Positions 6,457-49,033 of a stretch of 64,000 nt of DNA are shown piece after piece. The stretch covers positions 64,910 through 128,909 of the forward strand of contig JAIXVU010000001.1 of NCBI GenBank assembly GCA_027482685.1, in the 5' to 3' direction. The translations under genes and the position numbers were made by a program. The stretch's first letter is position 1. Each line of letters begins with the position of its first letter. Source of the DNA: a bacterium (lineage in GTDB: Bacteria > Patescibacteriota > Minisyncoccia > Phycocordibacterales > UBA5272). The notes under the pieces were generated by a model, which saw only the letters and a list, made by a program, of their open reading frames with translations, made no database searches and was not told the origin of the DNA.

Positions 6457-6496
6457 GGTCATCCATGGGCCTTCACAGGCGGTGGATGACGAGAGT

Positions 6497-31740: not shown

Positions 31741-31762
31741 TTTCTGTACTACAGATTTCCCC
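31699..31762. repeat. 64-bp perfect palindrome (32-bp arms, no spacer) whose centre is two tandem self-complementary ATGACGTCAT units
   Basis: GGGGAAATCTGTAGTACAGAAAATGACGTCAT|ATGACGTCATTTTCTGTACTACAGATTTCCCC was verified base by base. Confidence 0.85.
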
Positions 31763-32453: not shown

Positions 32454-32648
32454 TATCGCGCAAGTAAAATTTTTGTGGTAGAATTGTGGACAAGTTATTA
32501 AGGTAGTTTCTAGTTAAAAGTTTCAAGTTTTTAGTGAAAATACATACGCTATTTAGATAGCTTATAGTATCCACTTCTTTAATTCTTGAAAAGAATTCTC
32601 CGTATTTGTACCAACTAGAAACTAACAACAAATAACTAGCAACTAATT

Positions 32649-32720
32649 TTGGGTATCGTCTAACGGTAGGACATCAGCTAGCGGAGTTTACGGAGCGATA
32701 AAATAATGCGGTCCTGAGTA
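32649..32720 (+). pseudogene. Degenerate tRNA-Gln-like copy: the 5' half (acceptor/D-arm/anticodon-stem) plus a 32-nt insertion at the anticodon loop, with no T-arm or 3' acceptor
   Basis: TTGGGTATCGTCTAACGGTAGGACATCAG matches 27 of 29 positions of the real tRNA-Gln downstream. GGTCCTGAGTA resumes after the insertion. Confidence 0.45.
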
Positions 32721-32820
32721 CGAAGGACAATAAAGATTTGAAACGTACTTGTATGAATTAAAGTATTTTTGTAATTATGTATTTCACTCATAACTAATTA
32801 CTAAAAACTACTAACTATCT

Positions 32821-32862
32821 TTGGGTATCGTCTAATGGTAGGACATCAGCAAAGCGTAACAA
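32821..32862 (+). pseudogene. Second degenerate tRNA-Gln-like 5'-half copy with a 34-nt insertion at the same position
   Basis: TTGGGTATCGTCTAATGGTAGGACATCAG, then an insertion, then GGTACTGAGCAGG. The insertion is related to the one in copy 1 (both end in ..AATAA(T/A)GC). Confidence 0.45.
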
Positions 32863-32937
32863 CGTGAAGCGGTGGAATAAAGCGGTACTGAGCAGGACCA
32901 GAACAAATCTAAACTGCTCACAGAAGTTAAAAAATAT

Positions 32938-33008
32938 TGGGGTATCGTCTAATGGTAGGACATCAGGTTTTGGTCCTGAGTATCGAGGTTCGAGTCCTTG
33001 TACCCCAG
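32938..33008 (+). tRNA. tRNA-Gln (anticodon TTG)
   Basis: A manual cloverleaf gives acceptor TGGGGTA/TACCCCA, D-arm GTCT..GGAC, anticodon stem TCAGG/CCTGA with loop TTTTGGT, T-arm CGAGG-TTCGAGT-CCTTG and discriminator G. CC follows but is not counted. Confidence 0.8.
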
Positions 33009-33029
33009 CCAACTCGTGCGGAGTTCTGA

Positions 33030-33048
33030 CGCTCGGAGAGCGTCGAAA
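33030..33048 (+). repeat. Left copy of the exact 19-bp direct repeat CGCTCGGAGAGCGTCGAAA (contains the hairpin GACGCTC-GGA-GAGCGTC); putative island boundary
   Basis: It is identical to 48283..48301 and lies 22 nt 3' of tRNA-Gln. Confidence 0.6.
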
Positions 33049-33213
33049 CGTATGAGAGCTCTATACAGTTAATGCATAGCTACTGAGTGTAGCCAGCCAA
33101 ATCTAAAAAGTACCCCAAAAGGGTACTTTTTAGATTTTCCCATTATTACACTTCTTGCACTAAACTAATGACATTAGAGTTAAATTCAATGTTAAAACCT
33201 TCTGCGAGTTTGC

Positions 33214-33600
33214 ATGCAAAATTATGATAGAATAAATAATATGTCAGTAAAAAAAATACCTACAAAAAAGAAAAAAGTGGTAAATGTCTTATTTATTGTT
33301 TCAAAAAGTGGAAGTAATCCTCCACGAATAGACTTTTATGATAAAGGTAAATCTGTTCCAAAAGACAAAATTAAAGTAGTATTCAGAAACTCAAATACTG
33401 GACGTTTTGTTACTGAAAAGTATTCTCACACTCCCCCTATAGATAAAGACCACCCGAGAACTCATCATGTAAATAGAGACTCAAGATCTGGTGCGTTTAT
33501 AACAACAAAATCAGAATCAAGACATCCTTCAACCACCATTACTGAACGCATCTCAAAGGACTCTCCTATACATTTTAGAAAAGATAGCTCTAAAAAATAA
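33214..33600 (+). CDS. Hypothetical basic protein (128 aa), translationally coupled to the RusA-like gene
   Basis: The ORF's stop overlaps the ATG of the next gene (TAATGG). Confidence 0.4.
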   Translation: MQNYDRINNMSVKKIPTKKKKVVNVLFIVSKSGSNPPRIDFYDKGKSVPKDKIKVVFRNSNTGRFVTEKYSHTPPIDKDHPRTHHVNRDSRSGAFITTKSESRHPSTTITERISKDSPIHFRKDSSKK

Positions 33601-34088
33601 TGGAAAATTCATATCAATTTATTATTGATGGTATCATTCCTGCTACACAGCAGGCTTTTAAGAAAGTCACTGGGTTTGACCACTATGTTCGCAAGAATGA
33701 ATCAGCAGCAGTGGCTACATTCAAAAGTGTGGTCACTGAGCAAATTACAAGGGAAAGACCTCCTGCGACTTTCCCAACAACTAACTCTGTTTATGTTGCA
33801 ATTATTCAATTTTTTACATCCAACAGAGATAACTATCAAACTCGTGATGTAGACAACATGGCTAAAACCGTTTTAGATGCATTACAACAGAGTAATCTTT
33901 ACACAAACGATAGCCAAGTAAGAACACTTCTTGTAAGTAAGAGAGTGGACCTTGTGAGAGTTCCTCAAGATTTAGGGTACGTATATATAAAAGTATTAGA
34001 AGACGGAGAAGACATTGATGTTATTGATGACGCACTTGAACAAGCTCTTCAACTTTATGACAGTCTTAAGGCTGGAGAGGTAGAATAA
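33600..34088 (+). CDS. RusA-family Holliday-junction resolvase-like endodeoxyribonuclease
   Basis: RDVDNMAKTVLDAL matches the RusA catalytic D-x-D-N-x-x-K-x-x-x-D-A-L signature. The gene sits in a phage-like context. Confidence 0.6.
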   Translation: MENSYQFIIDGIIPATQQAFKKVTGFDHYVRKNESAAVATFKSVVTEQITRERPPATFPTTNSVYVAIIQFFTSNRDNYQTRDVDNMAKTVLDALQQSNLYTNDSQVRTLLVSKRVDLVRVPQDLGYVYIKVLEDGEDIDVIDDALEQALQLYDSLKAGEVE

Positions 34089-34558
34089 AAAATAATCACC
34101 CTCCTTCCTAGGGTGATTATTTTGTTATTGTCTAACGAGTACTAATTACTTAGTGTCGCCGTGACCTGTTTTCGGGATGCGTTCTACCGTAGTTGTATTC
34201 GGTCTTCGCTGTGCTTCTTTAACTGGAATAAAATGTCCAGTCTTAGAATCTCTCCCGAGAGGAAATGTCTTAGCCATATAGGTTATTAACATATTCGGTT
34301 GATAAATGGTCACTTAATATGTTAGGCTGGGATTACAACATCTTAACTTTACATGCTTAAGCACTGTGAATAAACGACCGGATTTCTGGAAGGAATCCTA
34401 ATCACATAACCTAAGGAACATTGTTTTAGAACAAATGTTCCTATATCTCTACCGTATCAAACTATTTTAATATTGTATAGTGTTATTTTAAACAATTAGA
34501 CAACTTTTTTTATAACTGTCTATATTAATCAAATTGTTGTAGTATTAGGTCATTTAAA

Positions 34559-35758
34559 ATGACAGATTTTACAATAAAAATTAAACGAGGTGGCATAAAA
34601 ATCGACAAACGAGTCTTTCTTTCTCTGTTAGACCTTTCCCCTATAAAAGACTACACAGATTATATTAAAGCTGTAGAGTCAAATGAGATTACTGTAAGTG
34701 ATTTAAAAATACTTGCTCAACGAGCAGATGTTCCATACCCATTATTTTTTGCACCAAAAGAAAAAGTTGACGCTCAACTTAAAGATACCCGAAAAAATCT
34801 ATTTGAAAAACTACCAACCAAGTCTGAAATGCAACTTGCTCTTCGCGGAGAAGCTAGTGTCGCTGATATAGAAATAATAGTGAAAGACATAGGAAGAAAA
34901 CAGGAGTTCTTAAAAAGAAGAGTACTCCCAGCAAGTGGTGACAACCCTTATATAGGATCAATTTCTAAGTTAATTAAGAAAGGTTTACCAAAAAAAGAAA
35001 TAGCTGAGCAAGTTAGATCTTATTTTGGAATCAATCTAGTAGAAATGCGGAAATTATCTAAAGATGATGTTCTTAGTTACATATGTAAAAAAGCTGAAGA
35101 AAAAGAAATCTTCATATCCATGAGTTCTTACAACTACATGCCTCAAAATCTGGATTCAAACCTTGGATTAAGTGGATTGTGTGTTAAAGATAAAAAAGTT
35201 CCTTACATTTTTGTAAACACTAGAGATGGCGATGATAAACCAAAGATATTAGAAACTTCAGGTAGACAAATACTTACAGTCATATCCATGCTTGTGTGCA
35301 TAGGAATAAATAAATTTCTATTAAGCACAAAAACAGGTAAATCCTCAAATACTGACTATAAAAGAATATACTCTATTGCTTCAGAAATTCTAATTCCTAC
35401 CAGCGAACTTAATGTAATAAAAATAAATAGTCTTTCTGATCTAACTAGTTGGGCACGTGTACTTAAAGTAACTCCAAGTATGCTTTTAATCTGTCTTGTA
35501 AATGCAGGTAAAATATCGAGAAAATTAGCTAACTCTTATCTTGAAAACCTGAGAGACGCTATAAAAGAAGTCCAACCAAAACGTAGGCAAGCTTTACCAA
35601 TTAATGGGTACAAAAAATACAACGGTGAAAGATTTTCAAAAGAAATAATTAGTGCATATAAAAATAACAAGATAACCGAAGGAGAAACAAAAAATCTATT
35701 ATTTAGAAAAGGAAAAATGGATAATAATTTATTCCAAGAGTATCTCTCAAAATACTAA
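34559..35758 (+). CDS. Hypothetical 399-aa protein, the upstream partner of the PIN gene. It has a possible HTH-like segment (LTSWARVLKVTPSML) and no recognised family
   Basis: The ORF is separated from the PIN gene by only 2 nt. Confidence 0.5.
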   Translation: MTDFTIKIKRGGIKIDKRVFLSLLDLSPIKDYTDYIKAVESNEITVSDLKILAQRADVPYPLFFAPKEKVDAQLKDTRKNLFEKLPTKSEMQLALRGEASVADIEIIVKDIGRKQEFLKRRVLPASGDNPYIGSISKLIKKGLPKKEIAEQVRSYFGINLVEMRKLSKDDVLSYICKKAEEKEIFISMSSYNYMPQNLDSNLGLSGLCVKDKKVPYIFVNTRDGDDKPKILETSGRQILTVISMLVCIGINKFLLSTKTGKSSNTDYKRIYSIASEILIPTSELNVIKINSLSDLTSWARVLKVTPSMLLICLVNAGKISRKLANSYLENLRDAIKEVQPKRRQALPINGYKKYNGERFSKEIISAYKNNKITEGETKNLLFRKGKMDNNLFQEYLSKY

Positions 35759-35760
35759 TT

Positions 35761-36159
35761 ATGAAATACTTATTAGACACAAACTCTCTATCAAAAAATA
35801 TCATTAACAAAGCCTCAAAAAGAAGTGATGTGTTTATCATTCGAGATGTTTTAGATGAGTACGTTTATTCACCAGAAGAAGAAACAAAATTTAAAAGTAC
35901 AGGTATTGATGTGATAGATCTTGAACAAAAACATTTTGAAAAATTAATAGAGGTCATGAAAAAACATGGTGATAATTTTTCTTTAATAAGGCTCTACACA
36001 GGAAAAGGCACAGCTGATGTTTTAATGTTGGCTTATATACTGGCTGAAACTGAAGTACAAGACACTCTTTTCCCTGAAGAATATACAATAGTCACCCAAG
36101 ACGGAGAACTTATCTCTGTATCAAAAGAATACGGAATAAATTGTATAAATCAATTTTAA
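35761..36159 (+). CDS. PIN-domain protein (VapC-like putative ribonuclease)
   Basis: The N-terminus MKYLLDTNSL carries the PIN first acidic residue, further D/E positions (DVLDEY, TQDGE) follow, and the size is 132 aa. Confidence 0.6.
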   Translation: MKYLLDTNSLSKNIINKASKRSDVFIIRDVLDEYVYSPEEETKFKSTGIDVIDLEQKHFEKLIEVMKKHGDNFSLIRLYTGKGTADVLMLAYILAETEVQDTLFPEEYTIVTQDGELISVSKEYGINCINQF

Positions 36160-36170
36160 TAACCTTAATT

Positions 36171-38492
36171 TTATACTTTTGCGTACAGTTTCTCTTGGAA
36201 TTTGAAGAAAATTGAACGAATCAAATCAATATCACCAAGTACATCTTTTGCATCCTCAAGTGACTGATATTTGTTTGTGAGCAATATAGGTAATTTCTCT
36301 TGGTCTAATTCTTCTACACCTGTTTCGATATACTTACTTAATACGAACTCAATAAACTCTTTTTGTTTATCATTAAGAGATTCAAAAATAGTTTCCTGAG
36401 ATGTTTCCACTCTTATATCTCTTGGTATTGGTTTAATATCACTATTAAATACATATTCCAACACATCAAAAAGATCACTATTCTCAGCATCAATCAATTT
36501 CTGTAATGTAGTTAATTCGTCTTTTCCATATCCTGCTTCGTCTAGTTTTTCTAGTAAACTTTTTCTAGTTATTGGATTACTCCAAATTTCTCGTAATTCT
36601 TCTTCACTTGTAAAGAATTTAGGTAATGTCCCAAACAAGTTTTGTAAAAACTCTTCCACAGAAATAGGTTTACCGTCTGCACCCCAAAATGAAGTTGCAA
36701 TCATGTGCTGTATTTCACGCTCTTTCCCATCTCGTAACTTAATCTTAAGTTTCTTATTCGGTTCAGTTGGTGGTTCTGGTGGAAAAGGTGGTTCACCCTC
36801 TACTCCTTTTGGTGGTTTAGGTTCCGTAGGTTCGTCATCTACTGGACTGATTGGTTCACCATCCCACTCAGGATCTGCAAAATGATGATAGGCATCTACA
36901 AAGTCATAAATAGTGAAGAACTCCTTACCGTCAAATAAACGTGTACCACGCCCCACAATTTGCTTAAACTCAATCATAGAGTTCACTGGTCGCATTAGAA
37001 CAATATTACGAATATTTCTAGCATCTACTCCAGTTGAAAGTTTCTGTGAAGTGGTGAGTATGGTCGGTATAGTTTTTTCGTTATCTTGGAACTCTCTCAA
37101 GAACTGTTCTCCTATTTCTCCGTCGTTAGCAGTAACACGCACACAATAATTTGGATCAGTGCTTTTCTTGTACTGATTAATCAAATCTCGAACAGCAGCC
37201 GCATGATCTTGAGTAGCACAGAAAACAATAGCTTTTTCATTTTGATCAGCTTCATCCATAAATACTTTCACACGCTTTTCCTCTCTCGCTTTAATTTCGA
37301 TTATCTTATTAAAATCAGGTTCGGTATAAAGTTTTCCTTCCTCGATTTCCCCTTCGATGATTTGGTCATCACTTGTATAAATATAATCGTCTAATGTTGT
37401 CTTAATACGCTTAACCTTAAAAGGAGTAAGGAAACCATCATTTATGCCTTCTTTTAGAGAATAAATATATACTGGCTCACCAAAGTATTTATACGTATCT
37501 ACATTGTCCTTACGTTTTGGTGTGGCTGTTAAACCTAATTGCACAGCAGGAGAAAAATATTCCAAGATTCCTCTCCAGTTTCCTTCGTCGTTTGCACCAC
37601 CACGATGACATTCGTCTATAATAATAAAATCAAAGTAATCAGGTGAGTATTCTCCGAAGTATGGGGCAGGATTACCATCTACATCTTTACCACTCATAAA
37701 GGTTTGAAAGATAGTAAAGAATATAGAGCCATTAGTAGGTACACTTCCTTTTTTACTTATCTCTTTTGGATTGATACGTACAAGAGAGTCTTCTGGAAAT
37801 GAAGAGAATGAGTTATATGCTTGGTCAGCTAGTATGTTTCTATCTGCTAAAAATAGAATACGAGGACGACGAGAACCATCACGCTTTAAGTTCCATCTTG
37901 TCTGAAAAAGTTTCCATGCAATCTGAAAAGCAATAGCTGTTTTACCTGTACCAGTGGCTAATGTTAGTAAGATACGATCCTTATTATTTGCAACAGATTC
38001 AAGAACATTTTTTACTGCTATTTCTTGATAGTAACGTAATTGCCAAGATCCACTCTTATCTTCAAATGGAACAGAACTAAACTTTTCCCTCCATTCATTT
38101 TGAACTGCAAAAGTTTTATTCCAAAGTTCGTCAGGAGAAAGATACTCAGAAACTAAACCCTCAATACCTGTTTTCATACAGATACTGTATATTTCTTTTC
38201 CATTTGTGGAATAGGTTGTTTCTATGTTTAATTTCTCTGCGTACTGCTTGGCTTGTGCAACACCTTCACCAACCCCTATGTTTGCACTCTTTGCCTCAAC
38301 CACAGCCAATTTTATGCCTTTGTAGACCAATACATAATCAGCAGTAAGTAACTTTCCTCTTATACCTCCAGTTTGAATTTTACCAGCAGTAATATTGTAT
38401 TCACGGAGTATTTTAGATCCTTCAATAACACCCCAACCACAATCTTTTAGCTTTGGATCAATTAGCTCTGCCCTTGTTTCAGATTCGTTCAT
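36171..38492 (-). CDS. hsdR: Type I restriction enzyme R subunit (HsdR), compact form
   Basis: The N-terminal HsdR nuclease domain (AVVEAKS), the SF2 motifs LATGTGKT and IIIDECHRG, and a position at the end of the hsdM-hsdS operon all fit HsdR. Confidence 0.8.
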   Translation of the reverse strand: MNESETRAELIDPKLKDCGWGVIEGSKILREYNITAGKIQTGGIRGKLLTADYVLVYKGIKLAVVEAKSANIGVGEGVAQAKQYAEKLNIETTYSTNGKEIYSICMKTGIEGLVSEYLSPDELWNKTFAVQNEWREKFSSVPFEDKSGSWQLRYYQEIAVKNVLESVANNKDRILLTLATGTGKTAIAFQIAWKLFQTRWNLKRDGSRRPRILFLADRNILADQAYNSFSSFPEDSLVRINPKEISKKGSVPTNGSIFFTIFQTFMSGKDVDGNPAPYFGEYSPDYFDFIIIDECHRGGANDEGNWRGILEYFSPAVQLGLTATPKRKDNVDTYKYFGEPVYIYSLKEGINDGFLTPFKVKRIKTTLDDYIYTSDDQIIEGEIEEGKLYTEPDFNKIIEIKAREEKRVKVFMDEADQNEKAIVFCATQDHAAAVRDLINQYKKSTDPNYCVRVTANDGEIGEQFLREFQDNEKTIPTILTTSQKLSTGVDARNIRNIVLMRPVNSMIEFKQIVGRGTRLFDGKEFFTIYDFVDAYHHFADPEWDGEPISPVDDEPTEPKPPKGVEGEPPFPPEPPTEPNKKLKIKLRDGKEREIQHMIATSFWGADGKPISVEEFLQNLFGTLPKFFTSEEELREIWSNPITRKSLLEKLDEAGYGKDELTTLQKLIDAENSDLFDVLEYVFNSDIKPIPRDIRVETSQETIFESLNDKQKEFIEFVLSKYIETGVEELDQEKLPILLTNKYQSLEDAKDVLGDIDLIRSIFFKFQEKLYAKV

Positions 38493-38513
38493 AATCTTGA
38501 CATTATAGCACTT

Positions 38514-39680
38514 TTATAGTTCGCCGTTAAATGCTTTTTGAAGAATACTTTTCTTAAGCTCTTCTAAGTCATTTAATTTTTGTTCGTAGATTGATTCAAG
38601 TCTTTTTGTTTCATTTGAAAGTGATTCGAGTTTTTTAACAATAAGTTCTTGCTCCTTTATTGATTTTGGAAAGCTTATTCTAATAAGTTTTAAATTTTTA
38701 AGAATAATTCTTCTTATTGCAACTCCTGTTTTCATCCCCACGGCCTCTTGTAAAAATTCAGGATTTTTCAAAACATATTTCAAAAAAGACGAATCAATGA
38801 TTTTTCTTTTAGGTCTTATGATTGCCAACGAAGACAACACTACAAAATCTTTTTCAAAATCAACAAGGGACACTTTTCCCACAGTCCCATCTTTTGAAAA
38901 AAGAAGATCCCCTTGATTTGGTTTACATCCATTTTTAAGTAAGGATTCATAATCTTTTTTATTTATAAACTTACACCTTTCAAAATTAATTATATCGTTA
39001 TCAATATCTCTTACTGTTATATACGGATATTCATCTTCATTAGATGAATCTGGGGAAAAATGACTTCCGTCCGTAATTTGTTCACAAACATCCATAAGCT
39101 CAACATTTTCCCAATCGCCTCCTTTATTTGTAAACACACTCTGTAAATAACTCTCAAAAAGCTCCTTAGCATTTTTTAGATTTTGTTCAGCATTATCTTT
39201 TACTTTAGATATGTTAGTAAAAGATTCCTCTAAAATAGATACAATGCGTTGTTGTTCTTTAAGTGGAGGAAGTACGATTGGATATTCTTTAATCATCGGC
39301 ACAGTTAATTGTGGTATTGATGACCCACTATGGGTAAAATCAATACCACTAATTACAAACTTAAGAAAAGTTAAACTAACAACATCTGTTTTAGGTATTA
39401 TAACTATGAGTCGCACCACTGGATAAAAAGGTTCCTGTCTTATTTCAGAGTAACCAATTGTACCTCTTGCTGAAATAGTTATGCTTGGTTTTGTTACTCT
39501 TGCGACATTTGTGTAACCATATAATCCCTTATTTTTCTCACCATTTGAAAAGATGGGGATATTATAAAAATCTGTTTTAACTTTAAATGTGTTATTTTTG
39601 TCTACATCACCACCAGCAAAAAGCTCTTCACAAACATCTCCTAACTTTTTTATTTCCCAGTTAGTTTTCATAATCGCCAT
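38514..39680 (-). CDS. hsdS: Type I restriction-modification specificity subunit (HsdS)
   Basis: Two target-recognition-domain halves are separated by the conserved coiled-coil repeats (LKEQQRIVSILE...; KEQELIVKKLESL). Confidence 0.75.
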   Translation of the reverse strand: MAIMKTNWEIKKLGDVCEELFAGGDVDKNNTFKVKTDFYNIPIFSNGEKNKGLYGYTNVARVTKPSITISARGTIGYSEIRQEPFYPVVRLIVIIPKTDVVSLTFLKFVISGIDFTHSGSSIPQLTVPMIKEYPIVLPPLKEQQRIVSILEESFTNISKVKDNAEQNLKNAKELFESYLQSVFTNKGGDWENVELMDVCEQITDGSHFSPDSSNEDEYPYITVRDIDNDIINFERCKFINKKDYESLLKNGCKPNQGDLLFSKDGTVGKVSLVDFEKDFVVLSSLAIIRPKRKIIDSSFLKYVLKNPEFLQEAVGMKTGVAIRRIILKNLKLIRISFPKSIKEQELIVKKLESLSNETKRLESIYEQKLNDLEELKKSILQKAFNGEL

Positions 39681-41106
39681 AGTTACTCTTTATATACTTT
39701 CTCTGCTTCACATATTCAATTAAAAGATTGTAAAACATCTCCTCTTCCTTGTCCTCAGCAACTTTAATAGAGTCACGACCGCTCTCGTCTTTAGTAATTA
39801 AGTACTTCCCCCAGTAAACATTAGAAGTTGTATTATCTGGTACCTTAATACCAAAAGACTTCAGCATGGTTACTGAGTATCTCCCGTAGGGCATTCTTTG
39901 GTCCATTTTTATAGTAGCGTTTTTTATAATTTCTAGCTTCCTTAAGAAAACATCAGTATTTGAAAAACTGTGTATAGTAACCTTTACCGCTATATCGAAT
40001 ATCTTTTGAAAACTATCCGCAAAATGGTCTTCATGATAACTACCTTTTTTTAACTCAAGTAGCTGAAATCTCGTTGCTTTTAGTAATGACCTCAAATTCA
40101 TAATTTCACTATTTATTGCTCTTGAAAAGATATGCCAGAGAAAAAGCTTAATGTACCCACTATTCCCAATAGAAGAACTTAAATTTGGTTCTTCATTCTT
40201 AATACTCATAGCAATTTGCTCAACTGTAGCGAGAATTGCTTTTTTATTATCAAAATAAAATGGACTAACAGTAAAAAACTTGTCCATGTACCCAGAGAAA
40301 TCTGTCTCTGCTCCATACTTATGGTGAAAAAAGTTTTTTAGGTTTGTGTAATCTGCAACAATAACTATTAAATCAAAACCAAATTTATTTTCATGCTCCT
40401 TTTCAAAGTAGGCGGATAATATATTTAATATCCTAAATACGTGCTCAGGGTCTATTCTGTCTAAGTCATCTAAAACAAGAATACTTTTTTTGGTATCTTT
40501 TTGAAGAGTGATTTTTTCTTTCAAGAGATGACTTAGAAAATCTGTTTCAGAAATGTTTTTTGCTTTAATCTGCTCAACATATTTTTCTACTAATGCTTTT
40601 TCTCCGCCTTTATATTCATGCTTAAATTCTTGAAATTCTTTATCTAATTCGAGTAAGTCCTTTAGTGGTCTACCGAGTTTAGTAAGAGAGGATGAAATTG
40701 GGTCTGGAATTGCATCTCCATAGTTTTCTGCAATAGAAAGAGTTGACTGTAAGACAGAATTTACAGTAAATCTATTTCTTGCCCAAGAATAAAAAAGAAG
40801 TGCTGATTCTTTTATTCCATCAACTTTATTACCTTGTAAAATATCCTTATTCTTTTTTAGTAACTCCACAAGAATGTCATATTTTATAAGCTCTAAAATA
40901 TCCTCATTACTGTTAATCTGATAGTTAATAGGATATAAATGAAACACATCATACTTATCTTTTCTGGATTCAAAGAATTCATTTAAGAAAAAAGTCTTTC
41001 CAATGCCGAAAGGTCCAGAGAAAAAAACTCTTGAATTATTTTCCATAACTAAAAAATCTTCAAAAACTTTTTCTACTGTATCAATTGGTATTTTAATATC
41101 TGCCAT
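39661..41106 (-). CDS. KAP-family P-loop NTPase embedded in the Type I R-M operon
   Basis: Walker A is SGPFGIGKT. The KAP-type Walker B is ILVLDDLDRIDPEHVF. The gene overlaps hsdS by 20 nt and starts 6 nt after hsdM. Confidence 0.65.
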   Translation of the reverse strand: MADIKIPIDTVEKVFEDFLVMENNSRVFFSGPFGIGKTFFLNEFFESRKDKYDVFHLYPINYQINSNEDILELIKYDILVELLKKNKDILQGNKVDGIKESALLFYSWARNRFTVNSVLQSTLSIAENYGDAIPDPISSSLTKLGRPLKDLLELDKEFQEFKHEYKGGEKALVEKYVEQIKAKNISETDFLSHLLKEKITLQKDTKKSILVLDDLDRIDPEHVFRILNILSAYFEKEHENKFGFDLIVIVADYTNLKNFFHHKYGAETDFSGYMDKFFTVSPFYFDNKKAILATVEQIAMSIKNEEPNLSSSIGNSGYIKLFLWHIFSRAINSEIMNLRSLLKATRFQLLELKKGSYHEDHFADSFQKIFDIAVKVTIHSFSNTDVFLRKLEIIKNATIKMDQRMPYGRYSVTMLKSFGIKVPDNTTSNVYWGKYLITKDESGRDSIKVAEDKEEEMFYNLLIEYVKQRKYIKSNYGDYEN

Positions 41107-41111
41107 AGAAA

Positions 41112-42578
41112 CTAAATAATCTTTTTAATTAAATTAAGGATATCTTCACTCTCTTTATCTAAAGCTTTCATTTCTTTCAAAATATCTTCAGGTGTTCGTA
41201 GTACTGTTTCCTCTTTTTTATTTGGGTTCTTAGCACTCAAATCAAAAGTTTTTTGGTCTATATCTTTCACGTTTACACTCCATGAGTTTTCACTCTCAGC
41301 TTTTGTTTTTTGAAGCTTAATAAAATCTTCTAAATCTTTTTCACTAAGTGAGTTTGTTTTACCTAAATTTCTATCTAAGTTAAGGTGGTAGAACCAAACC
41401 TTCTTTGTGGATGATCCTTTTTCAAAAAATAACACAACTGTTTTTACTCCTGCTCCAGTAAAAGTTCCAGCAGGTAAATCAAGTACAGTATGCAGGTTGC
41501 AATTTTCTAACAATAACTTTCTTAAGCTAACAGTTGCATTATCTGTATTACTTAGGAATGTATTTTTAATAACGACGCCACCTTTACCTCCAGCTTTTAA
41601 TATCTTGATAAAATGCTGTAAGAAAAGAGATGCTGTTTCTCCTGTTTTAATTGGAAAATTTTGTTGTACTTCTGCTCGTTCTTTTCCGCCAAATGGAGGG
41701 TTTGCTAATACGATATTATAACGGTCTTTCTCTTGTATGTCTGCAAGATTTTCAGCAAGGGTATTGGTATGGATAATATTCGGAGCTTCTATACCATGTA
41801 AAATCATATTCATCGTACCGATGATATAAGCAAGAGATTTCTTTTCCTTTCCATAGAAAGTTTTCTTTTGTAAAATTTCTACATCTTTTGTTGTGAGGTT
41901 TTTACTCTTCTTTAAATAATCAAAAGCTTCACATAAAAACCCAGCACTACCTACTGCACCATCATAAATAGTGTCACCAATTTTTGGAGCAACTACTTTA
42001 ACAATAGTAGTAATGAGTGGTCGTGGAGTATAGTACTCACCACCATTACGCCCAGCGTTCCCCATGTTCTGTATTTTAGATTCATACAAATGACTCATCT
42101 CATGCTTTTCAGCGTGGGTACGGAAACGAAGTTCGTCTATACGATTAATAACTTCACGTAAGTTGTAACCACTATGAATTCTATTTTTTAATTCAGAAAA
42201 AATCTCACCAATCTTATATTCAATAGTATCTGGACTTTCAGCACTTGTTTTAAATTTCTTAAGATAAGGGAAGAGCTTATGATCAACAAAATCTTTCAGA
42301 TCATCTCCTGTTAATTCTTTATGATGATCAAGTTTCCCTGTCTTATCCTTTGGGGTAGCCCACGTAGTCCAACTATATTCAGGAGATATAATATTAGTAT
42401 ATTTTTTTCCTGCAAGTTCAGCCGCTGTTTTCTTGTCTTTCTCTAAATCGTCTAGATACTTCAAAAACAAGACCCATGAGGTTTGTTCAACATAATCAAG
42501 CTCACTTCCGCATCCTGCATCTTTGTGTAAGATGTCGTCTATATTCTTAAAAGTTTGTTCAAACATAAATTTACTCAT
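41112..42578 (-). CDS. hsdM: Type I restriction-modification N6-adenine methyltransferase subunit (HsdM)
   Basis: The HsdM N-terminal domain, AdoMet motif I (DGAVGSAGFL) and the catalytic VLANPPFGG are present. Confidence 0.85.
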   Translation of the reverse strand: MSKFMFEQTFKNIDDILHKDAGCGSELDYVEQTSWVLFLKYLDDLEKDKKTAAELAGKKYTNIISPEYSWTTWATPKDKTGKLDHHKELTGDDLKDFVDHKLFPYLKKFKTSAESPDTIEYKIGEIFSELKNRIHSGYNLREVINRIDELRFRTHAEKHEMSHLYESKIQNMGNAGRNGGEYYTPRPLITTIVKVVAPKIGDTIYDGAVGSAGFLCEAFDYLKKSKNLTTKDVEILQKKTFYGKEKKSLAYIIGTMNMILHGIEAPNIIHTNTLAENLADIQEKDRYNIVLANPPFGGKERAEVQQNFPIKTGETASLFLQHFIKILKAGGKGGVVIKNTFLSNTDNATVSLRKLLLENCNLHTVLDLPAGTFTGAGVKTVVLFFEKGSSTKKVWFYHLNLDRNLGKTNSLSEKDLEDFIKLQKTKAESENSWSVNVKDIDQKTFDLSAKNPNKKEETVLRTPEDILKEMKALDKESEDILNLIKKII

Positions 42579-42591
42579 AATTATATCACTT

Positions 42592-44004
42592 TTAACTAGC
42601 TCGGACTAACTCAATTTCGCTTATATAAATCTTTTTATCTGATAGCAAAATTTTGCTTTTCAAACACCCTAACAACTCTCGTTTCTCTATATCCTTTCCA
42701 TCTCTCAAAATATACTTCGCATAATTTCGTATATCTACATCACCTACACTAGTACTATCCTTAACCCCTAAAACACCTATCTGAAAGCGTTTGAATCTAT
42801 TAACCTCATCTTTTATCTTCTCTTTCATTCCTATCTCGTCTAGGTCAATTTTATCGAACACCTCTTCTAACTGTTTAATAAGATCATCTTCATTAAGGTA
42901 TCCACTTTTACAATGTCTATCCCTCACCTTATTACACCCATAATAGACATATCTATGAATATTCCCATTCTTCTGTTTCTTTAACTTTTCATCGGCACAT
43001 ACTCCTGAACCACATAAACCACAGGTCATAAGTTTAGTGAAAGCAAATTCTTTACTTCCGAATTCTGTTTTTGTAATCTGTCGTGTTATCTGTACTTGGA
43101 CAAGATCAAAGAGTTCTTTTGTGATTAATGGCTCATGTGATCCTTTATACCAGTTACCACTCTTTTTAGGATATTCAAATTCTCCGTAATAGAAAGTATT
43201 TCTTAAGAGGATATGTATCGTACTTAACGTAAGCCCTTTATTACTACTTACCGATCTAAAATTAAGATCAAACTTTAACCAATGATACACTTTTCTACCA
43301 CTCCATTTTTCGTAAGCAACTTTCTCAAACATTTGTTTCATTATATGACCTCTCTCTGGATCAATATATGTCTGACATTTTCTATCTATTCTTTTTTCTT
43401 TAAGATAACCAGTAGGAGCAGGTGCTGGCCATAAACCCATTTCTACTCTTGTCTTTAAACCTCTCTTAACATTAATACTTTTATTATCATTTTCTAACTT
43501 CGCTTGAGAACAAAGAATCATTAATAAAAACTTTTCATTTGGGGAATTAGAAAATGTTTGTCCATAAGTTCTAATTTGAAGAAGTAACTTTTGATCCATT
43601 AAATCAACAAGCGACCCTAGGTCGCCTGCATTTCTACTTAATCTATCTGGTGCCCATGTCAGCACTCCGTTATATCTACCAATTCGTATATCTTCTAAAA
43701 TTTCTTTAAACACTGGTCGCTGTCCTGATTCTTTCGCTGAATGAGATTCTCGTCTAATATCAATAATTTCTAAACCTTCTCTTTCTGCTAACGAAAGCAT
43801 TTCTTTAATTTGTGAATCAATAGAAAGAATTTGTCTTTCTTCTGATTCAGTACTTTTTCTACTATATAAAACATATTTGATTTTTGTTGTTGGAATAACA
43901 GCCATATTACCTATTAGTCCAAATGGTGCTTGTTGTTGCATATATATATTAATGACAGAACCATAATCCCTGCATAGTCTATGCAGAACTAAAAAAGGCG
44001 ACAT
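42592..44004 (-). CDS. Large serine recombinase (resolvase/invertase catalytic domain + recombinase domain + zinc ribbon); the likely start is the internal MAVIPTT...
   Basis: The catalytic Ser context is YVLYSRKSTESEE. The Cys-rich ribbon CGLCGSG...C is present. The size is about 440-470 aa. Confidence 0.8.
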   Translation of the reverse strand: MSPFLVLHRLCRDYGSVINIYMQQQAPFGLIGNMAVIPTTKIKYVLYSRKSTESEERQILSIDSQIKEMLSLAEREGLEIIDIRRESHSAKESGQRPVFKEILEDIRIGRYNGVLTWAPDRLSRNAGDLGSLVDLMDQKLLLQIRTYGQTFSNSPNEKFLLMILCSQAKLENDNKSINVKRGLKTRVEMGLWPAPAPTGYLKEKRIDRKCQTYIDPERGHIMKQMFEKVAYEKWSGRKVYHWLKFDLNFRSVSSNKGLTLSTIHILLRNTFYYGEFEYPKKSGNWYKGSHEPLITKELFDLVQVQITRQITKTEFGSKEFAFTKLMTCGLCGSGVCADEKLKKQKNGNIHRYVYYGCNKVRDRHCKSGYLNEDDLIKQLEEVFDKIDLDEIGMKEKIKDEVNRFKRFQIGVLGVKDSTSVGDVDIRNYAKYILRDGKDIEKRELLGCLKSKILLSDKKIYISEIELVRAS

Positions 44005-44209
44005 TGTGAGAGATTTATTTGTCTACAAAAATGCCTTAGCAAAAGACCTTTTATGCGATATAATCAATAGATTAATACAAGAGTATTAAGAGAAAAAATT
44101 TGCAGTAGCCTAACCCTTTAAGTAATTAAAGGTATGGTGAAAAAGTCCTATCAGATCAAAAACCCCATCATGTGGGCTTTGCTCTGATAGGCCATATCTG
44201 GAAACGGAT

Positions 44210-45040
44210 ATGAAGGTCGCAAGACCTTACTCACGTGGTGGGATTTTTGCTTCCCAACGAGAGATTACTAAGTCCTATCAGACATATATGAACCAATCAG
44301 CATCTCCTTTTGGAGATAATTTTAGATATTTAGTAGAAGAACGAATCAAAAACTTTTGGGGATATGGTAACTTTAAAAGTGATATATGGTTTGTCGGAAT
44401 GGAAGAAGGTCACAGTGGAGATATTGAAAGTTTAGTTAAAAGATTAGAAGCTACGAAAGACAAAGAGACTCTGGATATCTATGATGACATGAAGCATGAT
44501 GTTGCTCATATGAAGTGGTTTGAAGAAGGAGCGAAAACTCAAGCAACGTATCGTCGACTAATTTATATATTACTCTATCTTAAAAACAAGGTAGAGCCGA
44601 CATTAGAGGAGATAAGACAATTTCAAATAAAAGAATTTGGTAGAAAAACATCAAATCATACAGCTCTTGAATTAATGCCACTTCCTGCAAAATCTATTAA
44701 TGCAAAAGATTGGGTATATAAGGAAGCGAATATAGAAGGATTGAATACTCGAAAAGAATATTTAGCAACATATAGACCAAGACGTATAGCACGACTTCGT
44801 GAATTAATTTCTATACATAAACCAAAGATTGTTATTTTCTACTCAAGGGTATATTTACCAGAATGGAGAGAAACGATACCTGTACCTTTAGAAGAAATTA
44901 AGGATACTAAACTTCATATAGCAAAAGACCACAACACGTTATATGTTGTAGTCCCTCACTCAACCTCTTACGGCATATCACTTAGTGATTGGAAGAAGAT
45001 TGCAGAAACATTAGTTAGTCACCATAGTCATCATCATTAA
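44210..45040 (+). CDS. Hypothetical protein (the likely start is internal). It has weak uracil-DNA-glycosylase-superfamily-like motifs (VGMEEGHSG; VVPHSTSYG), which are speculative
   Basis: ORF only; the motif resemblance is by eye. Confidence 0.35.
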   Translation: MKVARPYSRGGIFASQREITKSYQTYMNQSASPFGDNFRYLVEERIKNFWGYGNFKSDIWFVGMEEGHSGDIESLVKRLEATKDKETLDIYDDMKHDVAHMKWFEEGAKTQATYRRLIYILLYLKNKVEPTLEEIRQFQIKEFGRKTSNHTALELMPLPAKSINAKDWVYKEANIEGLNTRKEYLATYRPRRIARLRELISIHKPKIVIFYSRVYLPEWRETIPVPLEEIKDTKLHIAKDHNTLYVVVPHSTSYGISLSDWKKIAETLVSHHSHHH

Positions 45041-45422
45041 TATCGCCAACTACATTTGACGGCATATTTAATGGATCAACGGTATCAATAGTAATTGAAG
45101 TAATTGGTACAAACGGTTTCTTCCAAAAATCTTTTGGTCGTGGTCGCATGTACTCTTTTTTTTGGTTATCAAGATAATACTGGATAGCTCTCAAACTTCC
45201 ATTATTGATATGAGAGATAAGTTTACTCTCTGCAAGATCTATAATAGAGTCAGTCCCACACAAAAGAGCAAGATCTACACTTTCTTGAAACTCTGGATCA
45301 TCTTTACACCAACGATAGATTGTATTCCTCGCTAATCCTACTTTCTCGCAGGCGAGAGAAATATTGGGAACGGTGTTAAGTTGTTCAAGAAAAGCTTTTA
45401 CCTTTTTATCCTTTTTCGCCAT
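45015..45422 (-). CDS. HTH-domain protein, possibly a terminase-small-subunit-like or regulatory protein
   Basis: The N-terminal HTH is NISLACEKVGLARNTIYRWCKDD. The gene overlaps the ParB-MTase gene by 17 nt. Confidence 0.45.
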   Translation of the reverse strand: MAKKDKKVKAFLEQLNTVPNISLACEKVGLARNTIYRWCKDDPEFQESVDLALLCGTDSIIDLAESKLISHINNGSLRAIQYYLDNQKKEYMRPRPKDFWKKPFVPITSITIDTVDPLNMPSNVVGDINDDDYGD

Positions 45423-46692
45423 TTCGGATAACCTTTGCCTTTTTGCCTGTTAATGCTTCGTAACGTCGTATTGTTAAGTCACAAAATATTGGTTCAATCT
45501 CTACAGCATATACTCTACGCTTAAGATTTAGACCAGCCATAATTGTACTTCCTGAACCAGAGAAACTATCGAGAATGATGTCTGTCATTTTTGTACAACG
45601 GCGGATTGCCTTTTCGTATACTTCAGGTGGCTTCATTGTACTGTGTTCGTATTCGTTGCCAGAGAGACGCTTTTCCATCCATACAGTTAGATAATCGTGT
45701 GCTTGTTGTAACAAATCGTTACCTGTTGTCGTGTCGTTATTCATGACTTCATTTAGATCATTCACACCCTTTACGATATATGGCTTACCACGAGTGCCGT
45801 AGGTACAAGGTTCGTAACACTTGTTGAAAGCGACAGATGGGACGGGGTTCTGGGAATTTTTAAGCCATAAACATACTCGACGATTAATAATGCCAAATTC
45901 ACGATACAAAGTTTGTATGAGCCATATATACGCTTGATCGGACCAATAAAATATATGAGCATTTTCCTTGGTTACAGAAAGTGCAGCGACCATGCTCTTT
46001 CTTAAGAAGTCTGAGTATTCCTTGTCTGTCTTGTTGTCATCGACGGTACCACCGTAATTCTGCTTGCCACCAATTCCACTGTTATAGTTTACAGATATAT
46101 TGTAAATTGGATCTGAGATTATCATAGAAGCACGTTCGTCACCAAAGAGCTTTTGAAGTGTCTCTGGAAGAGTGGAATCTCCACATATCAATCGGCAGTC
46201 CCCAAGTTCTATGATATCGCCAACTTGGGTTGTTGCTTTCTTAAGCTTAATCTTCTCAAGTTCGACCTCTGGAGAAAACTTTCCTTGATCGAGTGTTCTG
46301 TTCCAAATATCGTCGAGTTGTTGTTGGTCAAAGCCGATATCAAGAAGTAGATCAAAATCTAATCGTTGGAGCTTGTCGATATCAAACTCACCAGTATTTT
46401 TGCTGAGTCGGACATTCAATTCCTTTTCTTTTTCAAGATCTGAAATATTTACGAAGACAACTGGAACTTCTACCATCTTGAGTTCCTTTGCTACTTCAAG
46501 ACGGAAGTCTCCTCCGATAACGGTATTCTCTCGACCTTTAGCACTGTTACAGATTATCGGATCCACGAATCCGAATCGCTTGATACTCTCTTTAAGCTGA
46601 TTTGCTTGTTCCGTTGTATGTTTGCGAGGATTGTACTCAGATGGATTAAGATTGGTAATCGGGAGATAAACGACTTTAATGTTGTTAGTCAT
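45406..46692 (-). CDS. ParB-like nuclease domain fused to a beta-class N6-adenine/N4-cytosine DNA methyltransferase
   Basis: The N-terminal ParB/Srx motif (PSEYNPRK; VIGGDFRL), MTase motif IV (SDPIYNI) and motif I (DSFSGSGST) are present. Confidence 0.75.
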   Translation of the reverse strand: MTNNIKVVYLPITNLNPSEYNPRKHTTEQANQLKESIKRFGFVDPIICNSAKGRENTVIGGDFRLEVAKELKMVEVPVVFVNISDLEKEKELNVRLSKNTGEFDIDKLQRLDFDLLLDIGFDQQQLDDIWNRTLDQGKFSPEVELEKIKLKKATTQVGDIIELGDCRLICGDSTLPETLQKLFGDERASMIISDPIYNISVNYNSGIGGKQNYGGTVDDNKTDKEYSDFLRKSMVAALSVTKENAHIFYWSDQAYIWLIQTLYREFGIINRRVCLWLKNSQNPVPSVAFNKCYEPCTYGTRGKPYIVKGVNDLNEVMNNDTTTGNDLLQQAHDYLTVWMEKRLSGNEYEHSTMKPPEVYEKAIRRCTKMTDIILDSFSGSGSTIMAGLNLKRRVYAVEIEPIFCDLTIRRYEALTGKKAKVIRNGEKG

Positions 46693-46696
46693 AAAA

Positions 46697-47113
46697 TTAT
46701 TTGTTTAGATCTACTCCACCTAGCTGTAAGAACATTTTTATGTGTCCAATTTTACCATCGCCAGTTGCTTGCTCATAAAGTGAATTAATGACTTCAGGAA
46801 TTCTATCCTTAATCCATCCAGAGATGTTCTTTTGAACAAAGAACGCAAACTTTGGGTGATGCTTCCAGTCTGTTAAGGTGTCTTCGCAAACTCCGACTGA
46901 TGAAGCAAATTCTTTCTGAGTTTTCATCTCGCGAAAATCTCGTGGAGTTGAGTACCACTCAGTGAATTTTAGGAATTCAGGCACATTGTAAATATCTGAG
47001 ATAACTATCGAAATATCGGAGTAAATCGGATTTGTTTCTGTAACCTTTGCACTGTCTGTATGAATTTCTTTCATATGTTTATTAGAATTAACTTTGAATA
47101 AACAAAAGCTCAC
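46697..47113 (-). CDS. Hypothetical protein with a possible HTH (KEFASSVGVCEDTLTDW)
   Basis: ORF only, in tandem with the methyltransferase gene. Confidence 0.4.
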   Translation of the reverse strand: MSFCLFKVNSNKHMKEIHTDSAKVTETNPIYSDISIVISDIYNVPEFLKFTEWYSTPRDFREMKTQKEFASSVGVCEDTLTDWKHHPKFAFFVQKNISGWIKDRIPEVINSLYEQATGDGKIGHIKMFLQLGGVDLNK

Positions 47114-47279
47114 GCACCTTGGGTAAGGTTGCGCGAGCTTTTAGTTAAAAAATCACTCGAGATATTGCTTTTGTATACTCATTATATCACACTAATTTTT
47201 CATGCAAGTTTCTTATTTTCAAAGGGTTTTTTAGAATTTTCGCATTAAAAATTCTGTTTGAGAATAGTTTTAAAAAGAT

Positions 47280-47903
47280 CTATACCTGTTCCTTTTCTTG
47301 TTCGTATCTTCGTCTTCTTTCGTCGAGAGTTTCTTCTTCAAATTCCCAATAAACTGGACCTTGTGCAGGATAAGCAACACCTAACGCCATTTGAGCTGCT
47401 TTAGATAGACTCATTGTTACATCATTAAATAGAACATTGGAACCTTCTGTTAAAGTACACGTAACTTCTGGATTTCTTGTGAAAGTAAATACACTGCCAA
47501 CAGGTAATTCATAAGCTTCAAAATCGTATCTCTTTGTGTACCGTCTTGCTTTGATAAGCGCTTTCTTGTCCTCCTCATATTCAACGATATCTCCTTGTGG
47601 AGTAACTTCTCTAACTTCAGCTAATTTAAGTGCAGCAACAACTCGTTCAGGTGTTTCAGTAAAGAACTCTCTGTTCTCAGCAACTCTTGTTCTTCCAAAA
47701 GCTTCATGTAATTTTCTTTCAACGAAATCCATATCATTTACTTCCGAAGCATAGAAAACTTCAAAAGGAAGAGGTACACCTGAAGCTCTAGAAAGCTCCT
47801 TTACTCTTCTATCGAGGTCATTAGTCTTTCCAATCTTTATGTACCCAGGCATTGCCACGTTAGTTAAAATATAGATGATATTCATATTCAGTAATACTAC
47901 CAT
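47280..47903 (-). CDS. GIY-YIG nuclease-family protein (T5orf172/DUF4357-like)
   Basis: NIIYILTN...GYIKIGKTNDLDRRVKEL is the GIY-YIG core. The likely start is at MNIIYIL. Confidence 0.6.
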   Translation of the reverse strand: MVVLLNMNIIYILTNVAMPGYIKIGKTNDLDRRVKELSRASGVPLPFEVFYASEVNDMDFVERKLHEAFGRTRVAENREFFTETPERVVAALKLAEVREVTPQGDIVEYEEDKKALIKARRYTKRYDFEAYELPVGSVFTFTRNPEVTCTLTEGSNVLFNDVTMSLSKAAQMALGVAYPAQGPVYWEFEEETLDERRRRYEQEKEQV

Positions 47904-48282
47904 AAAAACCCTTCCATATAGTTATACTTATATCTATATGGAACAATATATACATACAAGAAAAGAAGAAGATGAATTAGACTATTTAGCAGAGATATAC
48001 GTGTCAGTATATTTAGAAAATGAAAAAAGTAGATCTTTAGCGAAATTGAATTCTAACGTAGCTAAAAAGCAAGAATCTAATAGTTACCTTACCCAAAATA
48101 GTGACACTAAGCCGTAAATTAATTTTATGTAAAAAGTGTCACTTTTGTCACTTTTTATGAACAACAAAGATAAAAGAAATCCAAATAACTGGACTAAAGA
48201 AGAAACAGATAACATTGTTAATGCCTTCAAATGGCTTATTGAACAAGACAAAATACAGAACCCAAATCTATATAAAAATAAG

Positions 48283-48301
48283 CGCTCGGAGAGCGTCGAA
48301 A
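48283..48301 (+). repeat. Right copy of the 19-bp direct repeat CGCTCGGAGAGCGTCGAAA
   Basis: Identical to 33030..33048. Confidence 0.6.
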
Positions 48302-48388
48302 AGTTAAGTTAATAATTAACAAAAAAGCATTACAGGTCTTGACCGTACTTTTTCTGAGCACGTGCCTCTCAGCTGGTATACTTAAATA

Positions 48389-49033
48389 ATGAAACTAACA
48401 TTTGCATACGAAAGAAGTCGTGATATTTGGTGTATCTTGAATTATGGAAAGACTTCCATGAATTCTCCGACACCAACAAAAGTCTACAAAAATTTGATAC
48501 AACAATACGGAAACAACCCATCAGAAAGTGACATAAGTAATTTTGTCGTATCATACATGCCCCTAAATCAGATTAATACTGATGAAATGATAACTGTACT
48601 ACAAAGACAATGGGATACCATTTCATCTGAGTACCAGAATCGTGCAGAAGAAATATTTGGAATCACGTTACCAGATGATGTGACAGCATACATAACAATT
48701 AACGATCGCCGTCCGTACAGTATCCAAGATAATATGTTTTATGTCACTACTGCATATCCTAATGCGACAAATAAAGCCGCAATGCATGAACTCTGGCATT
48801 TCTATACGTAGTATAAATACGGCATGGAATGGGAACAAAAATTAGGTGCTGAAAAATATAATGAACTAAAAGAAGCATTAACAGTTCTCTTGAATGTGGA
48901 GTGTAGAGATTTACTTCCTAGTGGGATTATAGATAGAGGTTATCCTCAGCATCAAGAACTCCGACAAAGGATTCTCGAACTATGGTCTAAAGATAGGAAT
49001 ATGGATAATTTGTGGCAAGTTCTTATGGCATAG
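48389..49033 (+). pseudogene. HExxH putative metallopeptidase-like gene interrupted by a single in-frame TAG at 48809-48811 (either a pseudogene or a readthrough candidate)
   Basis: ORF 48389..48811 ends ...MHELWHFYT*, and ORF 48824..49033 continues in the same frame (the offset is divisible by 3). The 12 nt between them are also in frame (YKYG). Confidence 0.5.

Follow-up and report, generated by a model that had tools for sequence, protein, structure and literature searches.

Does the most conspicuous direct repeat near a genomic island also mark where that island ends? The question is raised by a tRNA-Gln locus of an uncultured bacterium of the candidate phyla radiation (CPR; Paceibacterota-type), which lies in a stretch of 64,000 nucleotides of contig JAIXVU010000001.1 (hereafter the window). 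The original prediction, made from these letters alone, had described a roughly 15-kb mobile, defence-loaded island at the tRNA gene, flanked by two exact 19-bp direct repeats at 33030-33048 and 48283-48301. An empty site in a relative, the junctions and the gene content uphold such an island, whereas its boundaries have to be moved. The element occupies window 33010-48373 (15,364 bp), its left junction with the host lies 21 bp before the left repeat copy and its right junction 72 bp beyond the right copy, and both repeats are therefore internal to it. What is duplicated is a 4-bp core, CAGC (33006-33009 and 48370-48373, plus strand). We regard it as very likely that window 33010-48373 is one element, inserted site-specifically at the end of tRNA-Gln(UUG) by a crossover within CAGC. 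For annotation this advises caution, as the most eye-catching direct repeat near an island is not necessarily the island boundary.

Boundaries and empty site at tRNA-Gln(UUG)

The integration target, tRNA-Gln(UUG), was located by ARAGORN at 32938-33011 on the plus strand (Rfam tRNA, 59.9 bits); genes and RNAs were annotated with Pfam, PHROG, PADLOC, Rfam and ARAGORN. Comparison with related genomes, as proposed with the original prediction, provided an empty site in one relative (L123/L124; related loci are given as L plus a number), where tRNA-Gln(UUG) directly abuts the gene that borders the island on its right side in the window. This gene is 70% identical to that of the window at the protein level and is followed by a DAO gene, as in the window. 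The empty site reads ...GTCCCCCAGC/TGATATACTTGAATAATGAAACTC, with CAGC preceding the break (slashes mark junctions), and the right junction of the window (48368-48397) reads CTCAGC/TGGTATACTTAAATAATGAAACTA. In blastn, L123 4486-4565 corresponds to window 32930-33009 and L123 4562-5222 to window 48370-49030. Because these matches to the two flanks overlap by exactly CAGC, the element is placed at 33010-48373 with a 4-bp core. Beyond the core, L123 4566-5222 is collinear with the right flank of the window at 76% nucleotide identity, and both 19-mers and both conserved end blocks of the element are missing from the empty site. The immediate flank gene led to this site; a search via the downstream DAO gene was unsuccessful, as relatives (~80% amino acid identity) have not kept synteny there, and an exact-sequence look-up of one left-flank protein returned no record.

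The same breakpoints recur in other genomes. The ends of the element are two conserved blocks, which we write as Z-19mer-W at the left and X-19mer-Y at the right. At the left core, the crossover region of the attachment site attL, homology starts at CAGC/CAACTCG (alignment breakpoint) in the window, L001, L002 and L012. At the right core, the crossover region of attR, it stops at CTCAGC/ (48373) in the window, L001, L011, L012, L030 and L039. The sequences that follow are all different (TGGTATAC, AAATCATC, CGATTTTT, TAAGCAAA, CAAGTTGA), and the flank in L012 is the Z block itself. L019 serves as an unoccupied control: a tRNA-Gln identical in sequence to that of the window is followed by CAGC/AACCAC and a terminator, without Z, and a tRNA-Gln-like RNA 40 nt further on bears a degenerate Z-W relic. 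In neither L019 nor the empty-site L123 does the tRNA-Gln encode a CCA, CAGC being followed by A or T; in the window, the element supplies the last two CCA bases (33010-33011).

These data bear directly on the boundaries first proposed, by which the 19-bp repeats would be the attachment core, with recombination inside the 19-mer and an element of 33030-48301. The proposal is attractive in that the repeat, exact and present only twice, is near the tRNA and brackets all mobile genes, but the empty site refutes it, and we consider it exceedingly improbable. L123 lacks the 19-mer, the 20 nt that separate the left copy from the tRNA and the 72 nt beyond the right copy, the breakpoints in seven other loci are CAGC and not the 19-mer, contigs of the L012 type carry both copies, 111 bp apart, on one molecule, and L052 has only one copy. 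The doubt already voiced in the original prediction, whether 19-bp repeats would be the product of a large serine recombinase, was justified, with only CAGC duplicated.

Joined ends of the element were found in three independent assemblies (L012, identical to L047; L045; L046), where X-19mer-Y is fused directly to Z-19mer-W, followed by a T5orf172 gene. The recombinase in these contigs is 98.7% identical to that of the window, and the same core genes extend over 4 kb at 88% nucleotide identity. This order is a circular permutation of that in the window, as expected of an excised circle or of a joint between tandem copies, with the crossover at Y/Z. The right 19-mer then comes to lie in the arm opposite to the left copy, 111 bp upstream of it. 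The junctions were reconstructed as ...GAGCACGTGCCTCTCAGC/CAACTCGTGCGGAGTTCTGA... for attP and ...GAGTCCTTGTACCCCAGC/TGGTATACTTAAATAATG... for attB; the identity common to the empty site, attL, attR and joined Y/Z is CAGC only. Different flanks (L001, L002, L011, L030, L039) and joined ends (L012, L045, L046) are as expected of an integrative element. The joined-end form has a tRNA-Arg(UCU) of its own by the X block (L012 5346-5419, L045 550-623, L046 243-316), and HTH (helix-turn-helix) and T5orf172 genes stand at that position in the window.

The G+C content is 0.29-0.36 within the region and about 0.36-0.44 in the flanks. The host right flank (48374-49033, plus strand, collinear with L123) begins with a 15-nt spacer, followed by two open reading frames (ORFs) of 140 and 69 amino acids (48389-49033) that together correspond to one gene; because relatives all have a single gene of 213-220 amino acids, it is split in the window, as a pseudogene or through a sequencing error. 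In L125 (7290-7345; also in L126), a 39-nt scar connects a degenerate tRNA-like 3' end to the same right-flank gene (CAGC/AAAGTTGAGCCAAGTTCTGGCGACCGGAGAGCTTTAACT/TGATATACTT). The scar resembles Z plus part of the hairpin, the sequence on its left equals the left junction of L001, and it looks like the remnant of a lost element.

The serine recombinase and its probable tRNA targets

The element encodes a large serine recombinase (42592-44004, minus strand; Pfam Resolvase, Recombinase and Zn_ribbon_recom; PHROG 95 integrase, E=1e-56). Its true start is probably at 43905, giving ~437 amino acids, and homologues have about 440. The catalytic domain (PF00239, E=3e-18, residues 45-190) contains KYVLYSRKSTESEERQ, which conforms to the Y-x-R-x-S pattern with the serine nucleophile, and is followed by the C-terminal domains PF07508 (E=1e-11) and PF13408 (zinc ribbon, E=2.5e-7). 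The nearest solved relatives, both distant, are the SPbeta recombinase YokA and the TP901-1 integrase. As the only recombinase of the element, and judging from gene content and the geometry seen across its family, this enzyme most likely performed the insertion, and the 4-bp shared core fits the large-serine-recombinase class.

The family is large, with more than 8000 database matches, and its best 120 clusters are all 70-98% identical. At every locus inspected, the 3' end of the recombinase gene faces the 3' end of a tRNA gene across variable cargo. Recombinases that are 74-78% identical share this geometry beside tRNA-Gln(UUG) (L053/L054), tRNA-Gln(CUG) (L052) and tRNA-Ser (L048); L053 has CAGC at both ends, and in the compact L076, also at a tRNA-Gln(CUG), only about 120 nt separate recombinase and tRNA. 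Among IMG/VR loci, a minus-strand tRNA was found 0.1-5.6 kb past the recombinase stop codon in 18 of 60, with tRNAs for Asp, Ser, Gln, Glu, Trp, Asn and Arg. The cargo in relatives includes MutH with Dcm, Gabija-like OLD with UvrD, CBASS-like (cyclic-oligonucleotide-based antiphage signalling) CD-NTase with Cap15, Dcm pairs, Type III and IIG restriction-modification (R-M) systems and a retron-like reverse transcriptase. A literature search yielded no description of this CPR recombinase or element family.

In the mechanism that we propose, the recombinase would join the attP of the element, i.e. the Y/Z joint, with the tRNA-Gln end as attB by a crossover inside CAGC. Insertion would rebuild the 3' end of the tRNA, with CCA now encoded, and would put about 130 nt of conserved, structured and terminator-ended element sequence directly behind it.

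Several observations weigh against a single element inserted in this way. All four assemblies of the strain represent the integrated form, and the contigs with joined Y/Z ends are short (5.9-7.2 kb) and could be junctions of tandem copies instead of free circles. Two recombinase genes occur on each of six IMG/VR contigs (L059/L072, L065/L067, L075/L096, L094/L095, L099/L100, L120/L121), and in L001 (1460-3680) a right-end (Y) and a left-end (Z) module are separated by 1.9 kb that hold three genes, including a G+C-rich one. The dyad matches in attP and attB (8-9 of 20) are no better than those at other centres in the same sequences. Furthermore, 4.4 and 9.6 kb separate the recombinase gene from the two ends, while compact relatives have it beside attP. 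An apparent palindrome in the predicted attB of the window (CCAGCTGG) is not shared by other hosts. In L039 (1-140), a right end continues into the initial 13 nt of an L053-type left end; L001, L039 and the six IMG/VR contigs thus show signs of tandem or nested element copies.

Repeats, end modules and the LOOT RNA

If the 19-mers are not the boundaries, what are they? As originally reported, exactly two copies exist in the window, both on the plus strand (33030-33048 and 48283-48301; CGCTCGGAGAGCGTCGAAA). None was expected by chance in 100 shuffles, and no further copy was found at up to two mismatches. The left copy starts 18 nt past the encoded CCA, which equals the reported 22 nt when counted from the discriminator base of tRNA-Gln. 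A scan of one genome per species returned 4 CPR genomes and 10 unrelated, mostly high-G+C genomes, the latter taken as chance matches. In the CPR genomes, the 19-mer always lies within one of the two longer conserved blocks, Z-19mer-W or X-19mer-Y; in metagenomes, 2 of 16 matches were true relatives (L030 and L039), and the 19-mer was not found in IMG/VR.

The original prediction had offered as an alternative a host repeat or terminator that brackets the island by chance, and had named many copies at unrelated loci, along with relatives that show no boundary there, as findings that would speak against its island. A 5-bp stem hairpin in the 19-mer and a T-run after the right copy on the minus strand are in keeping with a terminator, and a simple scan indeed found this one context, among all copies, to be terminator-like. 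The T-run is missing in L011, L012 and L001, so this context is not conserved. Moreover, the 19-mer is absent from both the L123 empty site and the unoccupied tRNA-Gln locus of L019, and its non-chance matches in public collections are confined to the end modules of this element family. A chance host repeat is accordingly very improbable.

The left copy is part of a longer RNA-like module, Z-19mer-W (33010-33142, plus strand; 150 bits with our model R1). It comprises the helices P1 and P2, the helix P3 formed by the 19-mer (CGCTC-GGA-GAGCG, with a TCGAAA tail), a conserved single-stranded segment CUAUACAGU, the helix P4 (GCUAC-UGAGU-GUAGC) and a bidirectional terminator (33099-33137). The module is 91-95% identical in L001, L002 and L012/L045, and diverged homologues occur in L052, L053, L048 and L076. 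In an alignment of this tRNA-proximal module, 38 pairs had 91.8% of their cells paired. Compensatory change was seen in 16 pairs, compared with 6.0 +/- 1.7 for shuffled data (0 of 500 reached the observed 16) and 0-5 with slid partners. The P3 hairpin is kept with other sequence as TGCTC-GAT-GAGCA (L048), TCCGA-GUUGCA-UCGGA (L053) and GUCAG-GAGA-CUGAC (L076). Because of this covariation and the persistence of the hairpin with different sequence, the best reading of the left 19-mer is that it belongs to a structured RNA, or possibly to a structured DNA site, behind the tRNA, and it is plausible that the module is transcribed as a tRNA trailer. Against this it must be said that the covariation comes from seven sequences of about four diverged types, and that for P3 alone, symmetric changes in a palindromic protein-binding site would appear identical.

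The right-end module X-19mer-Y (48095-48373, plus strand; homology with L001, L011, L012, L030 and L039 up to 48373) consists of X, with GTCAC-N5-GTCAC (48095-48156), a small ORF found in this lineage only (48157-48312), the 19-mer and Y (48302-48373). An RNA fold of 19mer-Y gave no convincing structure, with hardly any variation to draw on, and Rfam holds no family matching either end module. The right 19-mer, restricted to this sub-lineage, is conserved in L011, L012, L030 and L039; the L001 copy has three changes that weaken the hairpin.

The right copy is possibly a paired protein-binding site, which leads to another explanation of the repeats: the two 19-mers might be paired sites for an HTH regulator of the element or for a factor that sets the direction of excision, placed asymmetrically about attP in the manner of arm sites. 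Their identity reaches past the hairpin (TCGAAA), at least five diverged elements have retained both copies, and the right copy of L001 and L053 loses the hairpin yet keeps the sequence; L053 has a 13/19 match at the same offsets (+22 and -90). However, the left copy covaries as a helix nested in a larger fold, and no second copy was found in L052, so that a second 19-mer is not a requirement across the family. In addition, large serine recombinases are not known to use arm sites. Paired sites are hence a rather unlikely, although not far-fetched, explanation, and the structured module remains our preferred reading of the left copy.

A second RNA lies beside the recombinase gene. LOOT RNA (Rfam RF03000; 44107-44228, plus strand) was detected at 93.2 bits, against a gathering score of 46.4, over model positions 1-121, i.e. 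as a full-length match. It is divergent from the recombinase gene and about 100-350 nt upstream of it. The same position and orientation were seen in 10 of 10 non-viral recombinase loci scanned (L012, L045, L046, L048-L054) and in 5 of 20 IMG/VR loci; altogether, LOOT stands beside the recombinase in the window, L012, L045, L046, L048-L056, L076, L080 and L081. It mostly accompanies the closer recombinase relatives (at least 55% identity), and several IMG/VR loci at 55-62% are without it. LOOT is not known to have been described other than from metagenomes, or with an organism or gene context, and a literature search found no reported link to recombinases. In comparison, LOOT here adjoins, divergently, a serine recombinase gene in CPR elements, which places this RNA in a genomic and taxonomic setting; the left-end module is a second candidate RNA.

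A tentative extension is that the two RNAs sense or control the integrated versus the excised state. The duplicated 19-mer might be part of such a switch, and the new RNA might be transcribed as a tRNA trailer only upon integration. By the same tentative view, the loci would make up a very large, apparently undescribed CPR family that carries LOOT and trailer RNA and whose recombinase targets tRNA 3' ends.

Further RNA-like sequences surround the target. Two tandem tRNA-Gln-like copies precede the real tRNA-Gln (32645-32930; without an ARAGORN call). In each, the 5' half is intact, ~30 nt are inserted at the anticodon loop and the 3' half has decayed. The empty-site relative has part of this insert, 94% conserved, upstream of its tRNA-Gln (L123 4389-4450), and the copies are therefore not a local accident. 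In other relatives, a conserved RNA-like gene directly follows tRNA-Gln (L019 3951-4105, L026 from about 3150 onward, L030 262-380). At its ends it imitates the acceptor stem of tRNA-Gln (TGGGGTACAG ... CTCCTTGTACCCCAGCCA), with a ~130-nt insert containing CGTAAGGACTCGAAT in between. It resembles a small transfer-messenger RNA (tmRNA), and its 3' end in L019 has a relic of the left module of the element. It is absent from the window and was recognised by neither ARAGORN nor Rfam.

Cargo and relation to known systems

The gene content bears out most of the original list. Recombinase, RusA, ParB-methyltransferase, HTH proteins, the T5orf172/MUG113 nuclease-like protein and the Type I R-M operon with a KAP NTPase are supported by Pfam; the PIN module is not, as ORF132 (35761-36159) is PIN-like by eye only and gave no support from hidden Markov models even at E<=5. 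ORF132 closes a variable cargo block (33214-36159, plus strand; Pfam, PHROG) that further contains ORF128 (33214-33600) and ORF399 (34559-35758), both without a significant Pfam match and the latter with a weak match to a PHROG 'transcriptional regulator' family, and RusA (33600-34088; Pfam). L002 has another segment, of 4 kb, in place of exactly window 33139-36170. Just past W, a 56-nt stretch (33161-33216, minus strand) is 82% identical to L012 5816-5871, within an intact T5orf172 gene directly beside the W terminator; it is a 3'-part relic of the gene that follows W in the joined-end contigs.

The Type I R-M operon (36171-42578, minus strand) has all three subunits by Pfam and PADLOC (REase_I, Specificity_I, MTase_I): hsdR (36171-38492; the protein 96.8% identical in L002), hsdS (38514-39680) and hsdM (41112-42578). 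Between hsdM and hsdS, and overlapping the latter by 20 nt, lies the KAP-family P-loop NTPase (39661-41106, minus strand). It has a weak PADLOC match to candidate system PDC-S20, and its position recalls accessory or abortive-infection genes tied to Type I R-M, e.g. prrC. The operon is not beside the recombinase in L001, L048 and L053, which have other cargo there, and the L012/L045 type has a different, MerR-fused hsdM next to the recombinase.

A group of conserved genes follows (44210-47113, mixed strands; Pfam, PHROG): ORF276 on the plus strand (about 251 amino acids in relatives, hence ORF251; no significant Pfam match) and, on the minus strand, an HTH protein resembling the terminase small subunit (TerS; 45015-45422), a fusion of ParB_N with an N6_N4 methylase (45406-46692) and a second HTH protein (46697-47113). 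Window 42677-46705 is 88% identical to L012/L045/L046 at the nucleotide level, and the order methylase-HTH-recombinase recurs in L048 and L051-L054. The conserved core is thus the ParB-methylase, the TerS-like HTH, ORF251, LOOT RNA and the recombinase, and the rest is exchangeable cargo, which includes the T5orf172/MUG113 protein (47280-47903, minus strand; Pfam; PADLOC candidate system PDC-S57). The orientation opposite to the backbone that had been noted holds for the right flank but not for the left, where the genes are also on the minus strand.

Could this be a decayed prophage or a phage satellite, with TerS-like HTHs and ParB-methylase serving packaging by a helper phage? Matches to PHROG terminase-small-subunit families come from two small proteins (E=7e-8 to 4e-5), phages typically carry RusA and ParB-methylase, conjugation genes are absent, and 68 recombinase relatives are on 'viral' contigs of IMG/VR. 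On the other hand, Pfam and PHROGs revealed no capsid, portal, large terminase, tail, lysis, primase, replication or conjugation gene among all element ORFs, which sets it apart from prophages. Compared with satellites of the phage-inducible chromosomal island (PICI) type, there is an integrase but no primase or replication gene, and the packaging matches are weak, TerS-like and span the HTH part only. Structural, replication and conjugation genes are also lacking in the annotated family members, including L057, the sole annotated IMG/VR contig, where only defence genes (OLD nuclease, AAA_15/21, Type III R-M), alongside an S24 peptidase, surround the same methylase-HTH-recombinase core. A prophage or satellite origin is therefore unlikely, and we file the element as an integrative defence-cargo element; IMG/VR contigs bearing this recombinase may be integrative islands and not proviruses.

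Two features outside the element deserve mention. A perfect 64-bp palindrome (31699-31762; 32-nt arms, no spacer) extends across the start codon of ORF 31117-31740, and a Logan contig of the same strain ends near it (by arithmetic). Further to the left, 6001-8000 and 13001-14000 have a G+C content of about 0.50-0.52, compared with about 0.38 for the genome, and Rfam found no RNA there at the gathering threshold.

The genomes of CPR bacteria are tiny, and few of their mobile elements have been described. For one such element, attL, attR, an attP-like joint and the unoccupied target are now available to the nucleotide. Its recombinase family is widespread beside tRNAs of several identities and travels with defence cargo such as R-M, Gabija-like and CBASS-like systems. 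Should the recombinase recognise these short sites at tRNA ends, its natural attP/attB pairs would offer ready-made material for the study and engineering of serine integrases.

How does the element compare with known systems? With the recombinases of SPbeta (SprA/YokA), TP901-1, phiC31, Bxb1, A118 and the staphylococcal cassette chromosome mec (SCCmec; CcrAB) it shares the three-domain enzyme, with sequence kinship to YokA and the TP901-1 integrase, and with their elements the very short identity of attP and attB (4 bp here), unidirectional integration and hybrid attL and attR. Classic serine integrases mostly target protein-coding genes; here, insertion is at the very 3' end of a tRNA gene, virion genes are absent, kilobases separate the recombinase gene from either end, two conserved non-coding RNA-like modules are present, and no clear dyad symmetry of the att sites was detected. 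Islands inserted into tRNA genes by tyrosine integrases (P4-like islands, PICIs, tycheposons) are similar in their insertion at the tRNA 3' end, the regenerated tRNA, variable defence cargo, lower G+C content and an empty site. In contrast, the enzyme here is a serine recombinase, 4 bp are duplicated instead of a tRNA segment of 15-50 bp, and the element supplies the CA of CCA. Large serine recombinases have been reported in 27 of 937 tycheposons (bioRxiv 10.1101/2020.12.28.424599). As in defence islands on integrated elements, the cargo comprises Type I R-M, KAP NTPase and T5orf172 (PDC-S57) genes and relatives swap cargo in the same slots, the difference being the CPR host. Large-serine-recombinase elements, tRNA islands and mobile defence cargo are thus already known, and the element is a precisely delimited new member among them; it is less ordinary that a serine recombinase targets tRNA ends throughout the family and that two RNA modules are associated with it.

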